DNA of 64,000 nucleotides from Promethearchaeota archaeon (GTDB lineage Archaea > Asgardarchaeota > Lokiarchaeia > Sigyniarchaeales > SOKP01). The notes under the pieces were generated by a model that ran no database searches, was not told where the DNA came from, and saw only the letters and a program-made list of their open reading frames with translations. Where the stretch lies: contig JAEOTP010000069.1 in NCBI GenBank assembly GCA_016839765.1, positions 1 to 64,000 on the forward strand, written 5' to 3'. Of the stretch, positions 12,490-62,485 are shown one piece after another. Each line of letters starts with the position of its first letter. Position 1 is the first letter of the stretch. The translations under genes and the position numbers were made by a program.

Positions 12490-12607
12490 ATTTGAGTTTT
12501 AGTAATCTTATATTTGATTCTCTAATTGTAGGAAAACCAAAAATTATTAATTTTATGCTACATTTAAAATTTCAATTATAGTTCATCTATTTAACTGGTG
12601 TATAGTC

Positions 12608-13201
12608 ATTTTCAAACTTTTTCAAATTCAAGGGAAAATTGAGATTCCACCGTTTTTATTTGACCAACCAAAGGATGTTTCTGCCCGTATAATTCTATCT
12701 GAGGATTATGAGGGGATTATTACTAGAGATTATGGATTTATTATTGCAATAGTGGATGTTGTTGACGTGGGCCCTGGAATAATAATTCCTGGGAATGCAA
12801 ACACATTTCATGAGGTTGAATTTACAATCCTTTCTTTTAAACCGGTGATATCTGAAGTAGTGGAAGGAGAGGTAGTAGAAATTGTTGATTTTGGGTCTTT
12901 TATAAGACTAGGACCACTTGATGGATTGGTTCATGTTTCACAAATATGCGATGATTATATTTCATATGAACAAGTAGGCAATCGATTTATAGGGAAAGAA
13001 ACAGGAAAAATACTTGAAGTAAATGATATTGTGCGTGCTAAAATCATAGCAGTATCATTAGGTACTGGAAGGAGTGGAAAATTGGGTTTAACTATGAGAC
13101 AAAAATTTTTGGGAAAAGAAGATTGGATCGAACAAGATATTGAGGATGAGTATAGTGAAAAAGGAGAAGAAACAGCTAATAAAAAAGAGAATAAAAAATA
13201 A
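12608..13201 (+). CDS. rpoE1: DNA-directed RNA polymerase subunit Rpo7 (E'), ATT start
   Basis: Frame extends upstream of the ORF-track GTG to (I)FKLFQIQGKIEIPP, the conserved Rpo7 N-terminus; S1 domain EGEVVEIVDFGSFIRLGPLDGLVHVSQI; GGTG 7 nt upstream of ATT. Confidence 0.92.
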   Translation: MFKLFQIQGKIEIPPFLFDQPKDVSARIILSEDYEGIITRDYGFIIAIVDVVDVGPGIIIPGNANTFHEVEFTILSFKPVISEVVEGEVVEIVDFGSFIRLGPLDGLVHVSQICDDYISYEQVGNRFIGKETGKILEVNDIVRAKIIAVSLGTGRSGKLGLTMRQKFLGKEDWIEQDIEDEYSEKGEETANKKENKK

Positions 13202-13222
13202 AGATAATGAGGTGAATTACAA

Positions 13223-13414
13223 ATTTCAAAAGACCGAGCTTGTAAAAACTGTCATTTAATAACTAAAAATGAACAAATTTGCCCTAAATGTAAAACCCAT
13301 AGTCTAAGTGATGATTTTACGGGAGAAGTTATAATAATAAAACCTCAAGAGTCAAAATTTGCAGAATATCTGAAAATTCATTTTCCTGGAAAATATGCTT
13401 TAAGAGTCCGTTAA
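13223..13414 (+). CDS. spt4: transcription elongation factor Spt4 (RpoE2), ATT start
   Basis: (I)SKDRACKNCHLI...CPKC...SDDFTG...PGKYALRVR; GAGGTGA SD; missed by ORF track. Confidence 0.92.
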   Translation: MSKDRACKNCHLITKNEQICPKCKTHSLSDDFTGEVIIIKPQESKFAEYLKIHFPGKYALRVR

Positions 13415-13422
13415 AAAGCAAT

Positions 13423-14010
13423 CTACTCCTTTTGCATAATCGATAAAAATTTTTTTACTGTGTTTTGAATTCTCCTATTTACATCAACCATAACAATACC
13501 TTCTGGAATGGGATTTTTAGAATCGGTTATGGGAGGTTGCCCGTAAAACACTAAGCTTTTTAAATTTTGAATAAGAGGTAAAGTTATAACAAGAGGAAGT
13601 ACCAATAGATCTTCTTCCCCTTCGATTATTTTTAATAAAATTCTTTTATTTGATATTATCATTTGGTTTAATAGATTAAAACTTTCTTTACGTATTGTAC
13701 CTTTTGGATTCTTAAATTCAATTATTTCCTCAAAATATTCTTCATATCGTATTTTAATTTGACTTCTCTGAGTTTTTTCATCAACAATACATAGCTTAAT
13801 AAATTCTCTTAAAAATTGATTTATGAGAAAATCATTAGTGACAATATCCCCAACAAGATATACATTAATTTTAAACCCAGAATTTAAGAATTCTTTTATT
13901 AAACTCTCCACCTTAGGAATTGTTTCCGACCTAGATCCTGCAATTAATTTTCCTAATGGCTGTGTAAATCTATGCCTCCCTTTTTCGGGGATTTTAAGAT
14001 TTTCATGCAT
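13423..14010 (-). CDS. GTP-dependent dephospho-CoA kinase (DUF359 family)
   Basis: VGDIVT, VDEKTQR, NPKGTI, IEGEEDLL, YGQP motifs. Confidence 0.88.
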   Translation of the reverse strand: MHENLKIPEKGRHRFTQPLGKLIAGSRSETIPKVESLIKEFLNSGFKINVYLVGDIVTNDFLINQFLREFIKLCIVDEKTQRSQIKIRYEEYFEEIIEFKNPKGTIRKESFNLLNQMIISNKRILLKIIEGEEDLLVLPLVITLPLIQNLKSLVFYGQPPITDSKNPIPEGIVMVDVNRRIQNTVKKFLSIMQKE

Positions 14011-14300
14011 TTCCTTATCTTAAATTTTATTTTTTAAATTAATAGTTAGTACTAATAAAATTAACCATAAGAATATACTGCTTATGAAAGTAATAGAAAA
14101 AACGCCTACTTAAACATTTTTCAGCCAGAAAAAGTATCCATAATAAAATCTTTATTTTCCAGTTAAAGACCCTAATTTGTGCTATAGTCTATTCAAAAAA
14201 ACCAAAATTTTAATTCTTATAGTGCTTTGATCTTAAATAACTTAGAATAATCTTTAAATTAACTGATTGATTCAGAATTATACTACTTAAAAGGTTCATT

Positions 14301-14654
14301 ATGCCGCTAAATATTGAAATTTTAGAAGAGAAGAAAAATCCGCTGATAAACAGGATTGAATTAAGATTTAAAATCGATCATTTTGCTGAAGGAACTCCGA
14401 ATAGATTAGAAATAAAAAAGAAAATTGCTAAGATGAGCAAAGCAAATGAAAAATTAACCATAATCAGTGATATTAAGACACATTTTGGTTCCGCTCATGA
14501 TGTAGGTACTGCTCATATATATGAAAACGCAAATGCATTGCAATATTTTGAACCCTTTCATATCCAAGCAAGGAATCTAGAAAAAGAAAAAAGAACGGAA
14601 ATCTATAAATTGAAAAAGAGGAAAGAACCTTATAAACATCTATTTGATTATTAA
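14301..14654 (+). CDS. rps24e: ribosomal protein eS24
   Basis: NPLINRIE, GTPNRLE, THFG, AHIYE motifs and operon context. Confidence 0.92.
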   Translation: MPLNIEILEEKKNPLINRIELRFKIDHFAEGTPNRLEIKKKIAKMSKANEKLTIISDIKTHFGSAHDVGTAHIYENANALQYFEPFHIQARNLEKEKRTEIYKLKKRKEPYKHLFDY

Positions 14655-14684
14655 TAAGTAATTAACTTTGAAATTGAAGGAAAT

Positions 14685-14934
14685 ATGACGAATGTATCAA
14701 ATTTATATAAAATTGAAGGAAATAAATTAGTTAGAACCCATAGAACATGTCCTAAGTGTGGACCTGCCTATTTTCTCGCAGACCACTATGATAGATGGTG
14801 AGATTAAACTCATTATCCATAAAAGATCGTCTTGTGGGAAATGTGGCTACACAATATTTAAAAGAAAGGGAACTAAAGGAGCAAAAAGAGTAGCAACGAA
14901 AAGAACTCCTAGAAGACGTATGAAATCAAAGTAA
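14685..14934 (+). CDS. rps27ae: ribosomal protein eS31 (S27ae), two exons 14685-14792 and 14824-14934; 72 aa after splicing
   Basis: Exon 1 [36 protein letters not shown] plus exon 2 [16 protein letters not shown]...; canonical position between rps24e and kae1. Confidence 0.9.
14793..14823 (+). other. putative 31-nt bulge-helix-bulge (BHB) intron in rps27ae mRNA
   Basis: 4-bp helix TATG/CATA, 3-nt bulges ATA and AAA, 9-bp intron stem GATGGTGAG/CTCATTATC; canonical cuts restore the frame. Confidence 0.8.
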
Positions 14935-14998
14935 TCTCTTAGAGCTTAGTCTATTTTTTTTCTTAAATTCTCGCTAATAAACAAAATTGGCGAATATA

Positions 14999-16009
14999 AT
15001 GAAATCTAATAAAATAGCCCTTGGTATAGAATCAACTGCGCATACATGGGGTGTTGGGCTTGTCGATTTTACAGGGAAGGTTTTAAGTTTAGTAAATGAT
15101 GTATTTGTACCTGAAAAAGGAGGGCTTCATCCTGCTTTGGTTAGGGAGCAACATTTGAATAATTTCACAAGAGTTATTAATGAGGCTCTTACTCAAGCTA
15201 AATGTTCAATTAAAGATATTAATTTGTTAGCTTTCAGTCAAAGTCCTGGTTTAGGGCCTGTATTGAAAATAGGAGCACTTGTAGCACGTATGCTGGGTCA
15301 ACTTTTAAAAATCCCTATAATTGGAGTAAACCATTGTATTGCCCATATAGAAATAGGAAGATTAATGTGTAATATTGATGATCCCCTCTCTCTCTATGTG
15401 TCTGGTGGTAATACTATTGTGAGTGCCTATGAATCTGGAAGATATCAAATTTTTGGAGAGACATTAGACATTCCTATAGGTAATTTACTTGATTCATTTG
15501 CTAGAGAAGCAGAAATTCCTCATCCTGGGGGTCCCAAAATAGAAAATTTGGCTAAAAAATCAAAAAAATATCTCACTTTACCTTATGTGGTTAAAGGAAT
15601 GGATCTATCGTTTTCAGGACTTTTTACAGCAGCTAAAAGATTATTAGAATCTGAAAAATATGAAAAAGAATATAATTTATGTGATATTGCTTTTTCTCTT
15701 CAAGAGACTGCATTTGCAATGCTTACTGAAGTCACAGAAAGAGCCCTTGCTCACACAGAAAAGACTGAAGTTTTACTAACAGGGGGAGTAGCGGCAAATA
15801 AAAGATTACAACAAATGATTAATTCAATTAGCGATGAGCATAATGCAAAGTTCGAAGTTGTACCCCTAAAATATGCAGGGGATAATGGTGCAATGATTGC
15901 TTGGACAGGGATATTAAGGTATAAGAGTAAAGGAGAATTTAACCTTACAGAAACAATTATAAATCCAAAAGAAAGGATGGATAATATTTCTATTCCGTGG
16001 AGAAGCTAG
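14999..16009 (+). CDS. kae1: KEOPS N6-threonylcarbamoyltransferase Kae1
   Basis: GIESTAHT, VNHCIAHIE, SGGNT, GETLDI, GDNGAMIA. Confidence 0.96.
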   Translation: MKSNKIALGIESTAHTWGVGLVDFTGKVLSLVNDVFVPEKGGLHPALVREQHLNNFTRVINEALTQAKCSIKDINLLAFSQSPGLGPVLKIGALVARMLGQLLKIPIIGVNHCIAHIEIGRLMCNIDDPLSLYVSGGNTIVSAYESGRYQIFGETLDIPIGNLLDSFAREAEIPHPGGPKIENLAKKSKKYLTLPYVVKGMDLSFSGLFTAAKRLLESEKYEKEYNLCDIAFSLQETAFAMLTEVTERALAHTEKTEVLLTGGVAANKRLQQMINSISDEHNAKFEVVPLKYAGDNGAMIAWTGILRYKSKGEFNLTETIINPKERMDNISIPWRS

Positions 16010-16023
16010 GTGATAAATTAGGA

Positions 16024-16698
16024 ATGACTAGAAATATCACTAAAGAGAAATTGCTTCATAAAGGTGCAGAAGCAAGTTTATTTTATGGTCACTGGTTTGG
16101 TAAAGAAGTTATCTTCAAACATAGGATTATTAAGGATTATAGAATTGAACAACTTGATAGAAAAATTCGAACAGTAAGAACATTAAATGAAGCTCGAGCC
16201 CTTATAAAGGTAAAAGAATATAGAATTAACACACCACAAGTATATGAGATTGATACAGAAAGCTCCACAATAATTATGAAATATATCTCTGGTTCTAAGC
16301 TAAAAAATTTAATTAAAACTCTAAATATCTCTAAAAAAAAAGAGATTTTCACTAATCTGGGTCGAATTATCGCAATTTTACATATTAATGGACATATTCA
16401 TGGCGATATTACCACCAGTAATATAATATTAACATCAAGCGAAGATATTTTCCTTATTGATTTTGGACTTCATGATTATTCGGATTCTATCGAAGATAAA
16501 AGTGTTGATATCCATCTTTTAAAAAGAGTATTAATTTCTTCGCATGGAGATGATTTTAAGTTATGTTTTAATGCTTTTCTTGAGGGTTATAAATCAGAGT
16601 ATAGAGAAAGAGGAAATAATGCTTATAATGATATTATTAAAAATATCTCTATTATAGAAACTAGAGGGCGATATGTAAAAAAAGAAAATCGATTATGA
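16024..16698 (+). CDS. bud32: KEOPS kinase Bud32
   Basis: KGAEA, HGDITTSN, IDFGL, RGRY; adjacent to kae1. Confidence 0.95.
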   Translation: MTRNITKEKLLHKGAEASLFYGHWFGKEVIFKHRIIKDYRIEQLDRKIRTVRTLNEARALIKVKEYRINTPQVYEIDTESSTIIMKYISGSKLKNLIKTLNISKKKEIFTNLGRIIAILHINGHIHGDITTSNIILTSSEDIFLIDFGLHDYSDSIEDKSVDIHLLKRVLISSHGDDFKLCFNAFLEGYKSEYRERGNNAYNDIIKNISIIETRGRYVKKENRL

Positions 16699-16965
16699 TA
16701 GTAAAACATTTTCAATTTAAATATATAAATACCCTAATAATCGTTCATATTCTAATTAAATTTATCGAAACAATTTAGTAATGATATAGAATGCTTTAAA
16801 TACTTTATATAGGGAGAGATAATTTTATAAACAAGTTTTACTTATAATTTATTATCAAAAAGTTGGAATAAATTAAGGGTAGCGATTATTTTTGTTATCA
16901 TTTTTCCTCCTAAGATGGATCTCGGCTATTATTCCAAAAAAATAACAGGACAGGAGTAAGGAGAA

Positions 16966-17166
16966 TTGTCAGATAAAAAGAAAAAGAAAAAACCAACAAT
17001 GCAAAATATTACTATCAATATTCCTGAATGTTACGATAAAAATATTCAAAAGTTAATAGCGATGAAAATTGTGCCAAGTCGCTCTGAAGCAATTAGAACT
17101 GCATTACGAGAATTTTTACACAATGAATATAAGAATTTAAAACTTCTTGGCTATTTTGATGAGTAA
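16966..17166 (+). CDS. ribbon-helix-helix (CopG/MetJ) protein
   Basis: NITINIP...SRSEAIRTALREFL. Confidence 0.85.
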   Translation: MSDKKKKKKPTMQNITINIPECYDKNIQKLIAMKIVPSRSEAIRTALREFLHNEYKNLKLLGYFDE

Positions 17167-17182
17167 CTTTTTAAAATAAAAT

Positions 17183-17428
17183 TTATCGTCTTTTTCTTAT
17201 TTTTCTAGCTTCTCTTTCTACTTCTCTTAAAACTATAATATCACTTTCTCGTACAGGACCTTTAACATTCCTTGTTAAAATACGATTCTTGTCTGGACCC
17301 TCTAAAATTCTTACTTTAATTTGATTAATCTCGCCAGTTAATCCAGTTCTACCAACAATTTGGATAACTTCTGCAGGAATAGATGAATCCACAAATTGAG
17401 TTCCTTTTGATTTATCTAACTTGACCAA
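17183..17428 (-). CDS. rps28e: ribosomal protein eS28
   Basis: [25 protein letters not shown]. Confidence 0.96.
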
Positions 17429-17443
17429 ATTTTTTCCACCAAC

Positions 17444-17815
17444 TTACTTCTTTAAATCCTCTAGTTTCTTGATTACTGCATCTAAAACATTGTCATTTCC
17501 TGTTCCTAGATTTTCTATAGCGATAGCTGATGCTCCTACATTAATCCTAACGGTATTTCCTAATTCTTTTTTTGAAGATAAATATGCATAAGGTATTAAT
17601 TTTTCTTCACATAGTAATGGTACATGAAAAAGTATCTCTGGAGGGCTTACATCTTCAGCCATTACTACAATCTTAGCATTATTTCTTTCAATAGATTTAG
17701 TCACTTCATTCATTCCTTTTCTTATTTTAGAATCTCGAGATTCTGCTATTTTACTTAATACATTCTTTAATTCATTCTTTAAATTATCAGGAACTTTAAA
17801 TTTTACATAACTCAT
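17444..17815 (-). CDS. rpl7ae: ribosomal protein eL8 (L7Ae)
   Basis: MSYVKF, KGMNEVTKSIER, AEDVSPPEI, LCEEK. Confidence 0.96.
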   Translation of the reverse strand: MSYVKFKVPDNLKNELKNVLSKIAESRDSKIRKGMNEVTKSIERNNAKIVVMAEDVSPPEILFHVPLLCEEKLIPYAYLSSKKELGNTVRINVGASAIAIENLGTGNDNVLDAVIKKLEDLKK

Positions 17816-18017
17816 TTTGTTCTCCTTCAAATATATAATTTTTAATATATTATCATAAATCATCGATTTGTATTGAGATTAAAAATAATGGATATAAAAA
17901 AAATTTTTGCTTAATTTAGCTTTTTTATCCTTAATTTTCAAAAAATTTTTTTCCTTTAAAATTTAGAAGATAGAAAATAAAAATCATAAAGATTACACAA
18001 ATATCCTAATTATACTA

Positions 18018-18323
18018 CTACACAGAATTTAATGTGTTTTTTTCTTTATTTTTAAGAGCGTTTAATGCTTCAGTAGCACTCTCCACAACCTTTATGATCT
18101 TCCTTGATGCAGAATGACATCCTGTTTTATCAAGAAAATAAGCTAATTTGATTAGATCTTGGACTGCTTGCACTAGTTCTTGCTTTCCAAAATATTCCCT
18201 AAGCAAATCTTGCAGTTGTTCAACCGCATAATCGTCGAACTCAATTGGCTCAACCCCTTTATAAGCCATTCCCATTGCCCTTTCAACAATTGGGTGAATC
18301 TGTCTTTTTTGATCTTCTGTCAT
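18018..18323 (-). CDS. hypothetical helical protein
   Basis: 101-aa ORF with plausible composition. Confidence 0.55.
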   Translation of the reverse strand: MTEDQKRQIHPIVERAMGMAYKGVEPIEFDDYAVEQLQDLLREYFGKQELVQAVQDLIKLAYFLDKTGCHSASRKIIKVVESATEALNALKNKEKNTLNSV

Positions 18324-18516
18324 TCTTATTCTTTTGATATGATTCTAAAGGGATTTCTAGACTAATTATAAATTTAGAACTTATAATTGTTGGGGTCACC
18401 AAATAAAATAGACGAAAGATTTATTGATAGGAATGGATGAAAGTAGAATTACGAAATAATAAAAAATTAATTAATTAAAAAAAAATTAATAATAAAAAAA
18501 TTAGAGATTGATAAAA

Positions 18517-19059
18517 ATGAGGGGAAGTAAATATATCGCAATAATTGGTGCTATTTTAGGAATTCTTGTTGTGGTTCTGTTTTACCTTTTACCCGAAGTA
18601 TTTTGTTTATGGCGAATTGAAGCTACAGGGGCAGAATATTTGAAATTATATTTAGGTGGGTTCTATTCTATGGCTTATTCATTTACTTCTTGGCTCTCGC
18701 TAGATATTGAATTTATTCAGACTCCGGATCCACTATTGTTCGTTGTAAGTATTCTAATAGCAGGAGGGTTTGTTATAACACTAATCGGTGGTTTAGAAGG
18801 AAAAAGAAATACAGGAATTGGAGGGGGAATTACTTTGCTATTGGGTCCTATTCTCCTTATGATTGCGTTATTAACCGGAATGGGTACTCTTTTCGGAGAA
18901 TTGGCTTCGATTTTAGGCATGGTTGGACAAAACCTCCTATTTGGAAGCGTGAGTGCAATGGGAACGACTATGAGCTGGGGCTTAGGGCCTGGTTTTTTTG
19001 TGGCCTTAGCAGGGGGAGTTTTAGGAGTAATAGGGGGAGCTCTTATGGAAAGAGAGTAG
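18517..19059 (+). CDS. hypothetical membrane protein (about 4 TM)
   Basis: hydrophobic Gly-rich segments; T-tract downstream. Confidence 0.7.
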   Translation: MRGSKYIAIIGAILGILVVVLFYLLPEVFCLWRIEATGAEYLKLYLGGFYSMAYSFTSWLSLDIEFIQTPDPLLFVVSILIAGGFVITLIGGLEGKRNTGIGGGITLLLGPILLMIALLTGMGTLFGELASILGMVGQNLLFGSVSAMGTTMSWGLGPGFFVALAGGVLGVIGGALMERE

Positions 19060-19343
19060 TCGATTTAATTATTAAGATCTATTCTATTATAAGATTTTTT
19101 TTAAAAAATATTTTTTTTTAACTCCTCGTAAGGGTGGAAAAGAGATGTATACAAAGGTTCAAATGCTTAAGGGATTTAATATTTTCTTTCTCACCAAGTA
19201 AAGATCTGTCAAATTTTTCTTTAAATACTAGTCTTCTGAAGTTATTCTCACAATCGACACAAATGTTAAATATTGATTTATATTCATTTTACATAAGAGT
19301 CTATATGCTCTTGGCGAAAATTAATTGATATGAGTGGAAAAAA

Positions 19344-19790
19344 ATGGAACAAAAAAAATTATTTAATATTGGTACAATTTTACTTCTTGCTACGGTTGTA
19401 GTTTTGGCAATATATGGTATTCTCTATGTAATTACTGGAAGCCCAGCTATTACTGGAGCTTTAGCTTATATCGGAAAGAGTGAAGCGGAGATAAATGCTT
19501 TTGATCCCGAATTGATGATTATACTTAGCTATCAGTTAAGGGTACTAGGAATTGCATACATGAGCCTTGGAATTGCATATATATTTATAATTAACTTTGG
19601 TTTTCGAAAAAAAGAGAAGTGGGCTTGGATAGCTACCCTAATAGCAATTGTTGGTTTTGTTGTACCACTGATGCTCATGAGCATTAGTGTAATGGGTATA
19701 GATATCGATGTAATAATCTTAATCATTGTTCTGATTATTCAGATAGTAGGAGCGATTATAACCTATAAAAGTTTTTTCGGAGCCGAATAA
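19344..19790 (+). CDS. hypothetical 4-TM membrane protein
   Basis: four hydrophobic helices, GFRKKEKWAW loop. Confidence 0.75.
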   Translation: MEQKKLFNIGTILLLATVVVLAIYGILYVITGSPAITGALAYIGKSEAEINAFDPELMIILSYQLRVLGIAYMSLGIAYIFIINFGFRKKEKWAWIATLIAIVGFVVPLMLMSISVMGIDIDVIILIIVLIIQIVGAIITYKSFFGAE

Positions 19791-19868
19791 AGAAGTTATG
19801 GCAGTTATTAATTCTAAAATTTCTTAAAATTTTAAATTTCTTTTTTTTTAAAAAATAACAATTCTCTT

Positions 19869-20000
19869 ATGGAGAATGGCTTTTTTACTGAATTGAGTGA
19901 AAGAGTCAAATTCTCGATTTTATTGGGATTTTATGATGGAGATGGAGAGAGAAATTCATCTAAAATCCACAACTCAAATAAGAAATTTCTCTTTTATTGA
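19869..20000 (+). pseudogene. LAGLIDADG-type endonuclease fragment
   Basis: 43-codon frame MENGFFTELSERVKFSILLGFYDGDGERNSSKIHNSNKKFLFY containing a LLGFYDGDG motif. Confidence 0.55.
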
Positions 20001-20194
20001 AGTCTTGAGAACTTTAGGAGATCATTTATTAATTCTACATGAGCGACGATCATTCTTCTGCAGCAGAACCTTTCAAGGCCTAATTTTGTGAACGCCTCAT
20101 CAGAGCTCTCTCCTTTTTCAATCATTTCAAGATAAGGTTTATAGGTATGGGCGATTAATTTCCCGCAGCTGAAGCAGCGAATTGGAATAATAAT
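19994..20194 (-). CDS. rpoN: DNA-directed RNA polymerase subunit Rpo10 (N), ATT start
   Basis: (I)IIPIRCFSCGKLIAH...LGLERFCCRRMIVAHVELINDLLKF; missed by ORF track. Confidence 0.95.
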   Translation of the reverse strand: MIIPIRCFSCGKLIAHTYKPYLEMIEKGESSDEAFTKLGLERFCCRRMIVAHVELINDLLKFSRLQ

Positions 20195-20429
20195 ATGACA
20201 ACATTCTCCTTGAGTTATAATTACATTGTTATATAGTTAATGATTAAAAAAAAAGTTTTCTAAATTTTTAGATTATAGTTTTTTTAATTGATGATTTACT
20301 GAAATTTTCACGACTCCAATAAGCAGATAAACTTCTCTAATATTATTGTTTGAATTTTGAATTTTTATATTCTTCCAAAACTTATTTCATTCAAAAAAAG
20401 TAGTGATAAGGCTTTGATGGCAAGTTATT

Positions 20430-45804: not shown

Positions 45805-46737
45805 TTAGCCTAATTTGCTTTTTATTTGCTTAGATCTGCTTCTTAATGTGACTTCGGTGACTTTAGCAATTTCTGAGACTTCTGCTTGAGTTTTACGACA
45901 ATTGCTTGACTTAGCAGCCATATAAATAACACTCGCTGCTAACCCTTTTGGATCTTTTCCCGTGCGAAGTAAGCCATTTTTGGACGCTTGGGCAAGCATG
46001 TTGATTGCCTTCTTTTGCACCTCCATAGGTAAACCCAAATCGTTACCGAACCGAAATACTAGCTGTTCAGCGGTGATCGGTTTATATCTAAGCGAAAGTT
46101 CCGGGAGAACCTCTTTAACAATCATCCCTAAGCTTCTATGGACAGTTCGCCTTGGAGTCATTGAAGAATCGCATACTTCCTCTAAGAGTCTAGGAAATTC
46201 ATGTACTCGGATCGCAGCGTATAACGCAGCGGCAATAAAACCATCAATTGATCGACCCATCGTTAACTTCTTCTTAGCAACAACTGAATAAATCTTCCAC
46301 GCAGTTTCTTTAATATACTCCGGGATATTCATCTTAGAAGTAAGCATCTTCAATTTTGGCTTTGCTTCCCAGAAATTTCTTTCAATACTGGAGATTAATG
46401 AATTCTGAATTTTAGAAAGTCTTGAGAATAATGTTTTACCCTTTGCATTGATGAGTCTACCCTTACTATCGATTTTGGTGTTTGGTAACATAGTTCTGGG
46501 CCCAAATTCCCTCCACCGCGGTTCAGTCCTTCTCCTCTTGTTCACCTCTTCTACAGTATATGCCCGTCTCTCATTTCCAACCAAATTGCGACTCTGAATC
46601 ATTCCGCAACTTAAACAAACGATATCTCCATCTTTGGACTCAATACACGGATTATCACAGCATTGCTCACTGCTACTTTTCTCATTTGAACTATCAGTTC
46701 TTTCCGAATAGTGCCGAAGTCTATCTTTGTAGCTCAT
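45805..46737 (-). CDS. tfb: transcription initiation factor IIB (TFB)
   Basis: Zn ribbon VCLSCG, two cyclin repeats, GKDPKGLAA, TEVTLR. Confidence 0.93.
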   Translation of the reverse strand: MSYKDRLRHYSERTDSSNEKSSSEQCCDNPCIESKDGDIVCLSCGMIQSRNLVGNERRAYTVEEVNKRRRTEPRWREFGPRTMLPNTKIDSKGRLINAKGKTLFSRLSKIQNSLISSIERNFWEAKPKLKMLTSKMNIPEYIKETAWKIYSVVAKKKLTMGRSIDGFIAAALYAAIRVHEFPRLLEEVCDSSMTPRRTVHRSLGMIVKEVLPELSLRYKPITAEQLVFRFGNDLGLPMEVQKKAINMLAQASKNGLLRTGKDPKGLAASVIYMAAKSSNCRKTQAEVSEIAKVTEVTLRSRSKQIKSKLG

Positions 46738-61756: not shown

Positions 61757-61826
61757 TGATATAATCATTTTCTAAATGAATTTTAAATTAGAAAAATTCC
61801 TACAGATTAAAAGAAAATTTGAGAAA

Positions 61827-61862
61827 ATTTTAAAGTAAAAGAAGATTTTAAAGTAAAAGAAC
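61827..61862 (+). repeat. 18-bp tandem duplication
   Basis: ATTTTAAAGTAAAAGAAG / ATTTTAAAGTAAAAGAAC. Confidence 0.7.
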
Positions 61863-61864
61863 AT

Positions 61865-62485
61865 TTGAGTGATGGAAATTTGACTAATGTAGACATAATA
61901 CTTCAAATAATGTTTATTTCTATAGGAATGGTAGCTTTAGGATTAATTTTAAACAAATTTTTAGGAATTAATCTTCAGTCTGCCAGAGAATTAAGAGATA
62001 AAGCACAAAACATTCAAGAGCGTATGCGAACAGCCCAAGCTACAGGAAATGCTCAGGAAATGTTTGCGCTGCAGCGAGACTCCACTGCTTTAATGAAACA
62101 GATGATGAAAAAACAACTTATCCCATCATGTATTAGATGTGTTGTATTTCTTGGAATTTTTGCTTTAATAGGAGTTTTTTATATGAATTATGCTTCAGGA
62201 CTTTTACCCTTTGTGATTCCACTTCTTGGAGATGGTTGGGTTGCTGTTTATTTTTTGTTTTCTATTGGGTTTTCTCTCCTTTTATGGGGAGTAAAGAAAT
62301 TATATAGAAAGTTAACGGGTAAAGTTGATGCAAGGAGTAAGATTTCAAAGGAAATTTTAGAAGTATTATCACCTACATCTCAAGGAACAGCAAGTGGTTT
62401 TCAAATACCTGCCCCAGCACCATCAGGAAGTGAGGAAACTGAAAAACTTGATTCTTGGAAAGATCGCATTAAAAATAACTCATAA
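61865..62485 (+). CDS. EMC3/TMCO1 (DUF106, Oxa1 superfamily) membrane protein
   Basis: TM1, cytosolic coiled coil, Met-rich MKQMMKKQLIP, TM2, LPF...GWVAVYFLFS. Confidence 0.8.
   Translation: MSDGNLTNVDIILQIMFISIGMVALGLILNKFLGINLQSARELRDKAQNIQERMRTAQATGNAQEMFALQRDSTALMKQMMKKQLIPSCIRCVVFLGIFALIGVFYMNYASGLLPFVIPLLGDGWVAVYFLFSIGFSLLLWGVKKLYRKLTGKVDARSKISKEILEVLSPTSQGTASGFQIPAPAPSGSEETEKLDSWKDRIKNNS

Follow-up and report, generated by a model that had tools for sequence, protein, structure and literature searches.

Three genes of the transcription machinery, rpo7, spt4 and rpo10, appear to begin with ATT in a 64,000-nucleotide stretch of a Promethearchaeota archaeon of the Lokiarchaeia (assembly GCA_016839765.1, contig JAEOTP010000069.1, positions 1 to 64,000; hereafter the window). 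The sequences of this genome and of its relatives show these starts to be real, conserved and dependent on their Shine-Dalgarno (SD) sequences, and we infer that initiation with Met takes place at the AUU itself. It is likely, in our judgement, that all three are intact single-copy genes translated from AUU under a general, permissive start regime, with a trade-off between SD sequence and start codon and without a circuit dedicated to transcription. In the mechanism that we propose, the duplex between the SD and anti-SD sequences would set the P site of the 30S subunit over AUU, and the initiator Met-tRNA would pair with two of the three bases of the codon, so that the protein would begin with Met. 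The regime of the genus would be permissive, with about 3% of genes on ATT, ATA or ATC (collectively ATH) behind an SD sequence, the gene for aIF1, the start-codon proofreader, included. At a genomic G+C content of about 30%, decay of ATG to ATT or ATA would be tolerated where the SD sequence can carry initiation, and output would stay roughly constant by a trade, either a weak codon with an intact SD sequence or ATG with a decayed or absent one.

Start codons of rpo7, spt4 and rpo10

Gene starts were examined from stop-to-stop open reading frames (ORFs) together with the raw sequence (Table 1). A preliminary description of the window had claimed that no ATG, GTG or TTG precedes the conserved N-termini of the three proteins, and direct reading of the sequence bears this out. 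The rpo7 frame is open from position 12551, and its earliest in-frame canonical codon is a GTG at 12752, codon 49 counted from the ATT; the spt4 frame (13211-13414) has no in-frame ATG, GTG or TTG; and the rpo10 frame (20236-19994, minus strand), in which the proposed start is the first of three ATT codons, has its earliest canonical start, an ATG at 20125, at codon 24. A start at 12752 would cost Rpo7 most of its SHS2 domain, and one at 20125 would leave Rpo10 without its N-terminal CxxC (zinc) motif. Each gene is present once in the genome, and all the Pfam matches of the products exceed the curated cut-offs: SHS2_Rpb7-N (residues 10-62, 40.6 bits) and S1 (residues 82-154, 42.7 bits) in Rpo7, the Spt4 domain (residues 5-63, 53.1 bits) in Spt4, and RNA_pol_N in Rpo10, where profile positions 1-58 fall on residues 2-59 (93.6 bits). 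The SD registers first reported, GGTG plus 7 nt for rpo7, GGTG plus 8 nt for spt4 and GGAG plus 11 nt for rpo10, were found again, and all three fall within the spacers seen at canonical starts of this genome (GGTG at 5-10 nt, GGAG at 7-12 nt). Also as first described, neighbouring genes are canonical, S24e, Kae1, Bud32, L7Ae, S28e, L24e and S6e using ATG, TTG or GTG.

Table 1. Positions of the ATT-start genes and associated elements; coordinates are those of the window unless a contig is named.
Feature	Position	Strand	Details
Promoter-like block CCAAAAATTATTAATTTTATG	12537-12557	+	about 50-70 nt 5' of the rpo7 start
GGTG SD core of rpo7	12597-12600	+	spacer to ATT 7 nt; read in sequence
rpo7 (RpoE')	12608-13201	+	197 aa; start ATT 12608-12610; stop TAA 13199-13201
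GAGGTGA SD of spt4	13209-13215	+	within the 21-nt gap after rpo7; 8 nt between GGTG and ATT
spt4 (RpoE'')	13223-13414	+	63 aa; start ATT 13223-13225
rpo10 (RpoN)	19994-20194	-	66 aa; start ATT 20194-20192; stop 19996-19994
GGAG SD core of rpo10	20206-20209	-	spacer to ATT 11 nt; read in sequence
aIF1 (SUI1)	contig C91:35229-35444 (outside the window)	-	no canonical start between the upstream TGA and the CxxC motif

The search covered 40 relatives, of which 24 belong to the same genus and 16 to three other families within the order. Orthologs carry an ATG at exactly the position of each of the three ATT codons, in agreement with the earlier claim that ATT stands at or next to the place of the homologous Met behind an SD sequence. 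The Met-aligned codon of rpo7 in the 22 informative genomes of the genus is ATT in 15, ATC in 3 and ATG in 4; beyond the genus it is ATG or TTG, save for an ATA in G034, a member of another family. For spt4, ATT is found in the present genome (G000) and in G022, G018, G010 and G019, and ATG at the same position in G013 and G020; more distant relatives start at an ATG or TTG that is shifted by one to two codons. The corresponding codon of rpo10 is ATT in G000, G019 and G023 and ATA in G018, G020 and G010; a further 22 genomes have ATG. The rpo10 of G010 also has an in-frame TTG, merely 1 nt past GGTGA and too near to serve as a start. An in-frame stop lies two codons (G015) or one codon (G007) 5' of the ATT or ATC of rpo7, and one to two codons 5' of the ATT of spt4 in G022, so that the start is bracketed in these genomes, with no room for another at the rpo7 of G015 and G007.

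This tabulation across relatives, which the preliminary description had proposed, shows that near-cognate states recur, though they do not co-vary: the codons of rpo7, spt4 and rpo10 are ATT, ATG and ATG in G013, and ATT, ATT and ATG in G022. The states are nested, that of rpo7 being old in the genus and the ATT codons of spt4 and rpo10 occurring only in the subclade nearest G000, where they are patchy. Identical codons in independent assemblies mean that these are heritable states and not errors of sequencing or assembly, and a G>T read error, the alternative raised at the outset, was rejected on this ground. Control genes from the same fetched loci are canonical in nearly every case: S24e has ATG in 25 of 26 and S6e is canonical in 19 of 19, and for a DPCK-like gene 25 of the 27 aligned codons are ATG or TTG, the other two genomes having a canonical codon a few codons away. 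The L24e control (rpo10 loci L003-L031) includes, among 21 orthologs, one whose Met-aligned codon is ATC and which lacks a canonical start in the vicinity, so near-cognate starts extend to ribosomal protein genes.

Joint change of start codon and Shine-Dalgarno sequence

All near-cognate rpo7 leaders retain (T/G)GGTG at -11 to -8. GGTG is kept in each of the 16 ATT or ATC genomes of the genus with a readable leader, as well as in the ATA genome G034, and it has decayed in three of the four ATG genomes of the genus (no SD sequence in G024, AGTG in G012 and AGGATA in G009), G002 being the sole one of the four to retain it (AGGTG). The same pairing is seen in another family, where the ATA genome G034 has GGTGA plus 7 nt and its ATG sister G030 has TTGGTTT. 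On a maximum-likelihood tree of rpo7 there are six changes of start class; the SD sequence shifts the same way in four to five of six independent pairs and the opposite way in none (sign test on six independent contrasts, p 0.06-0.125). At rpo10, genomes with ATT or ATA carry GGTGA, GGAG or GTGAT; genomes with ATG mostly lack an SD sequence and have instead a conserved TATA-like block, AATTTTTTTAGAATA, 20-34 nt upstream (loci L011-L017 and L020-L022), which may be the TATA box of an rpo10 mRNA that is leaderless or nearly so. The subclade of G000 has instead a leader with an SD sequence and ATT or ATA, and the rpo10 leader of G022 and G013, both ATG genomes, is homologous to that of G000, reading AAAATA...ATG where G000 reads AAGGAG...ATT. 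The operon-internal spt4 keeps a strong SD sequence in ATT and ATG relatives alike.

That the rpo7 codon toggles between ATT, ATC and ATG with the SD sequence in step suggests a constraint on output, or on the rate of initiation, and not on the codon. Weaker start codons tend to be offset by stronger SD sequences (PMC5622118), and the joint, lineage-wise change of start and SD strength described by Belinky, Rogozin and Koonin (2017; PMC5622118) resembles what we find at rpo7 and rpo10. Their study, however, was limited to AUG, GUG and UUG, whereas the weak partner here is AUU, AUC or AUA, and the ATG state here may have no SD sequence at all. Upstream of the SD sequence, the CCAAAAATTATTAATTTTATG block is nearly invariant among rpo7 leaders of the genus (alignment A1); its position and composition make it a putative BRE (B recognition element)/TATA element, and its distance from rpo7 would imply an mRNA with a leader of roughly 30 nt. 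RNAalifold found no conserved base pairs in 20 rpo7 leaders, so a structured regulatory leader is unsupported, and an Rfam scan of the whole window matched no family.

Near-cognate starts across the genome

In the 3.32-Mb assembly, a dicodon coding model with greedy ORF selection yielded 3032 genes over 86% of the DNA. About 100 of these (3.3%) have a coding-like stretch 5' of any ATG, GTG or TTG, beyond the null given by genes with a confident SD sequence and a canonical first start. A strict filter, which asked for an SD sequence of 5 nt or more, a coding signal of 8 bits or more up to the first canonical codon and non-coding sequence upstream, returned 26 ATT, 10 ATA and 8 ATC, compared with AAT 6, TTA 6, TAT 1, TTT 2, GAA 2 and AAA 12 for control codons of similar or higher frequency. 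The 41 high-confidence genes with an SD sequence and ATH display a striking GGTGA-N6-7-ATH pattern. Outside the window, 22 of 40 high-confidence ATH genes have a Pfam domain that begins 5' of the first canonical start, the remainder being uninformative or without a Pfam match. Redox, GTPase, transport, regulator and repair functions are all represented among the 41; examples with Pfam support are an EtfA with a ferredoxin domain, several ferredoxins, an aldehyde:ferredoxin oxidoreductase, two MvhD and an SDR, together with a GPN-loop GTPase, folE2, two roadblock/LC7 proteins, SMC, an ABC ATPase, HxlR, a response regulator and HhH-GPD. Enrichment of four-mer SD sequences by codon was weak (135 observed for ATT against 107 expected) and was replaced by the filters on SD length and coding potential; an expectation-maximization estimate of start-codon usage from coding potential and SD sequence was dropped as too noisy, AT-rich upstream codons having taken up weight. 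Within the window, an ORF at 61823-62485 (plus strand) has 14 coding-like codons (16 bits) 5' of its first ATG, GTG or TTG, and no SD-preceded ATT, ATA or ATC was seen in that upstream stretch.

A further 21 basal transcription genes were located genome-wide by Pfam family and their 5' ends read. RpoA', B, D, F, H, K, L and P, Spt5, TFE, TBP, two TFS, one TBP-like gene and six TFB paralogs begin canonically, with ATG or TTG, where a start is expected. One gene of the 21, which equals the genome background, has ATT: a TFB paralog (C17:40284) in which the codon lies behind GGTG and the zinc ribbon lies 5' of the first canonical codon. The seven TFB paralogs of G000 are spread over the window and six other contigs, and the window copy (45820-46380, minus strand) starts with ATG. 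The pattern of a transcription-specific ATT regulon, in which other RNA polymerase (RNAP) and basal genes share ATT and other classes do not, was thus not found. The preliminary description had suggested that ATT might be a feature of the transcription class; ATH starts proved instead to occur across all functional classes, the outcome that it had itself set against that claim. The ATT starts are a sample of a genome-wide habit, and a control circuit dedicated to transcription is not supported. Since rpo7 and spt4 share one operon, and a count of three ATH genes among the 68 genes of the window fits the background rate, the presence of three such transcription genes in one window is mostly coincidence.

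The start of aIF1 was compared in 28 genomes (loci L101-L129). It is an invariant ATT in all 17 readable genomes of the genus, behind a conserved AAAGGTTGTGA or GAGGTGA, and the adjacent codons vary; in G007 and G005 the SD sequence includes an in-frame GTG. The codon is ATA in genus g5 (G030 and G034). In the other six genera whose aIF1 start is readable it is TTG, ATG or GTG, and there the starts of rpo7, spt4 and rpo10, where sampled, are canonical too. Near-cognate aIF1 is thus found in two lineages, the present genus and g5, and near-cognate rpo7 was seen in the same two only; as two events, this co-occurrence is suggestive only. Judged as elements of the infC type, none of the three transcription genes has a weak codon that is invariant among relatives, and neither Rpo7, Spt4 nor Rpo10 discriminates against AUU, which of these products only aIF1 does. 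The aIF1 ATT being invariant whereas the rpo7 codon toggles, the role of a sensor, if any, would belong to aIF1 and not to the three transcription genes. The AUU of the bacterial infC gene serves autoregulation. Given this precedent, and given that on 30S subunits of Sulfolobus solfataricus aIF1 rejects a model mRNA with AUU but not one with AUG (PMC4705826), a permissive regime set by an aIF1 that limits its own level would be a reasonable mechanism.

Several observations weigh against the reading that we prefer, that of a general permissive regime with a trade-off between SD sequence and codon. The figure of 3% contains some share of frameshifted gene fragments, and the survey passes over ATH starts located near a canonical codon. 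With six contrasts, the co-variation of SD sequence and start fails to reach p<0.05. ARAGORN detected 19 tRNAs in the 3.3-Mb genome and none for Met or Ile; many tRNA genes of G000 are probably intron-containing or unassembled. All three ATH genes of the 68-gene window serve transcription and, when the discovery genes are included, 4 of 24 basal transcription genes are ATH (binomial p 0.007-0.03 for a background of 3.3-5%). Finally, the persistence of the rpo7 ATT throughout the genus could reflect selection for the codon itself and not tolerance. As a separate observation, the ARAGORN calls in G000 include Pyl(cta) and two SeC(tca).

A broader reading extends the aIF1 mechanism. The near-cognate start of aIF1, in this genus and independently in g5, would limit the level of aIF1 as that of IF3 is limited, and would fix a regime of low stringency in which the ATT, ATA and ATC genes, those for Rpo7, Spt4 and Rpo10 among them, would form a translational stimulon. 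We hold this rather unlikely. The preliminary description had proposed a narrower version, in which ATT is a shared device that ties the synthesis of Rpo7 (the stalk subunit of RNAP), Rpo10 and Spt4 to aIF1-dependent stringency, as a transcription-specific translational regulon, and this we regard as unlikely. The link to stringency is plausible at the level of the lineage, where the aIF1 ATT is invariant, and ATT-start genes should then respond to the level of aIF1 (PMC4705826); the excess of ATH among basal transcription genes over the roughly 3-5% seen genome-wide, the concentration of such genes in the window and the age and spread of the rpo7 ATT or ATC in the genus all speak for the idea. 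The shared device, on the other hand, is not supported. The held-out transcription genes lie at background; Rpo4, the partner of Rpo7, and Spt5, the partner of Spt4, start at ATG; ATH starts are scattered over unrelated gene classes; and the three genes fail to co-vary among close relatives. Moreover, the rpo7 ATT has become ATG in four lineages, with the SD sequence lost in three, so the codon is dispensable, and no RNA structure is conserved in the rpo7 leader.

A third possibility is adaptive down-tuning gene by gene, each ATT being selected for a low protein level independently of any lineage-wide relaxation. Its case is that rpo7 has kept ATT or ATC in 18 of 22 genomes of the genus, that the aIF1 ATT is invariant, and that in E. 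coli near-cognate codons start translation weakly, AUU, AUA and AUC yielding 0.02-3% of the output of AUG (10.1101/063800). However, across 20 taxa the third base of the rpo7 start has undergone about seven changes, four from T to G and three from T to C, at least as many as a synonymous site next to it; an ATG behind a decayed SD sequence is an accepted alternative; and the ATT codons of spt4 and rpo10 are young and patchy. We consider this explanation quite unlikely. Least credible of all, and in our view extremely improbable, is that the genes are not started at ATT, whether because of sequencing errors, because they are pseudogenes, because their products begin at the downstream GTG or ATG or because rpo10 is read by frameshift from an out-of-frame ATG-TTG at 20204: that ATG (20204-20202) does directly follow the GGAG of rpo10, but it lies just 1 nt past the SD sequence, is unconserved and does not occur in G018 or G010, which likewise have no canonical start at proper spacing, on which grounds the frameshift was rejected, and the remaining variants run against the concordant codons of independent assemblies, the single-copy, essential nature of each gene, the loss of domain or motif from downstream starts and the absence of any canonical codon from spt4.

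Annotation, known systems and archaeal initiation

The loss in annotation foreseen by the preliminary description would indeed follow: gene finders limited to ATG, GTG and TTG would return an rpo7 of 149 aa and an rpo10 of 43 aa, and would not call spt4 at all. Some pipelines already accept ATT or ATC starts, inconsistently, and many full-length Rpo7 calls in the protein database begin MFKL. One NCBI call (P0001, which matches the rpo7 leader of G020 at locus L034) starts at an ATC 10 codons 5' of the conserved ATT, reading MFYLFIWCRAIFKL; it reads through the SD sequence and is probably over-extended. Another Rpo7 call, P0003, is shortened to 181 aa. Truncated or missing calls of this kind could yield false claims of a missing subunit in comparisons of the archaeal and eukaryotic transcription machineries.

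The closest precedents are the E. coli genes infC, which encodes IF3, and pcnB, in both of which an AUU behind an SD sequence is the genuine start of an intact gene, as we propose here; moreover, the product of infC is the factor that discriminates against such codons, the role of aIF1 in the present case (10.1101/063800; PMC4705826). The differences are several. The machinery here is archaeal, with aIF1, aIF2 and an unformylated initiator Met-tRNA; about 3% of genes are concerned instead of two; Rpo7, Spt4 and Rpo10, in contrast to IF3, are not fidelity factors; and the codon of the three genes is not fixed but toggles with ATG or ATC among relatives. In eukaryotes eIF1, the homolog of aIF1, holds down its own production by means of a suboptimal start site, an AUG in poor context (cited in PMC6237735). 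The ATT of aIF1 would be the archaeal counterpart of this autoregulation, although the weak feature is the codon itself and not its context.

A literature search found no paper describing the use of near-cognate starts in Asgard archaea. New in the present work are the three ATT genes, the genus-wide pattern of rpo7, the co-variation of SD sequence and start, the test on held-out transcription genes and a table of aIF1 in 28 genomes. The co-variation provides a natural series of leaders, from ATT with an SD sequence to ATG without one, that is directly testable in vitro. The archaeal initiation apparatus, which contains homologs of eIF1 and eIF2, is thought to accept AUG, GUG and UUG only. In this lineage AUU, AUA and AUC appear to be routine, even for essential, stoichiometric subunits of RNAP, and the gene for the proofreading factor has the same weak codon.

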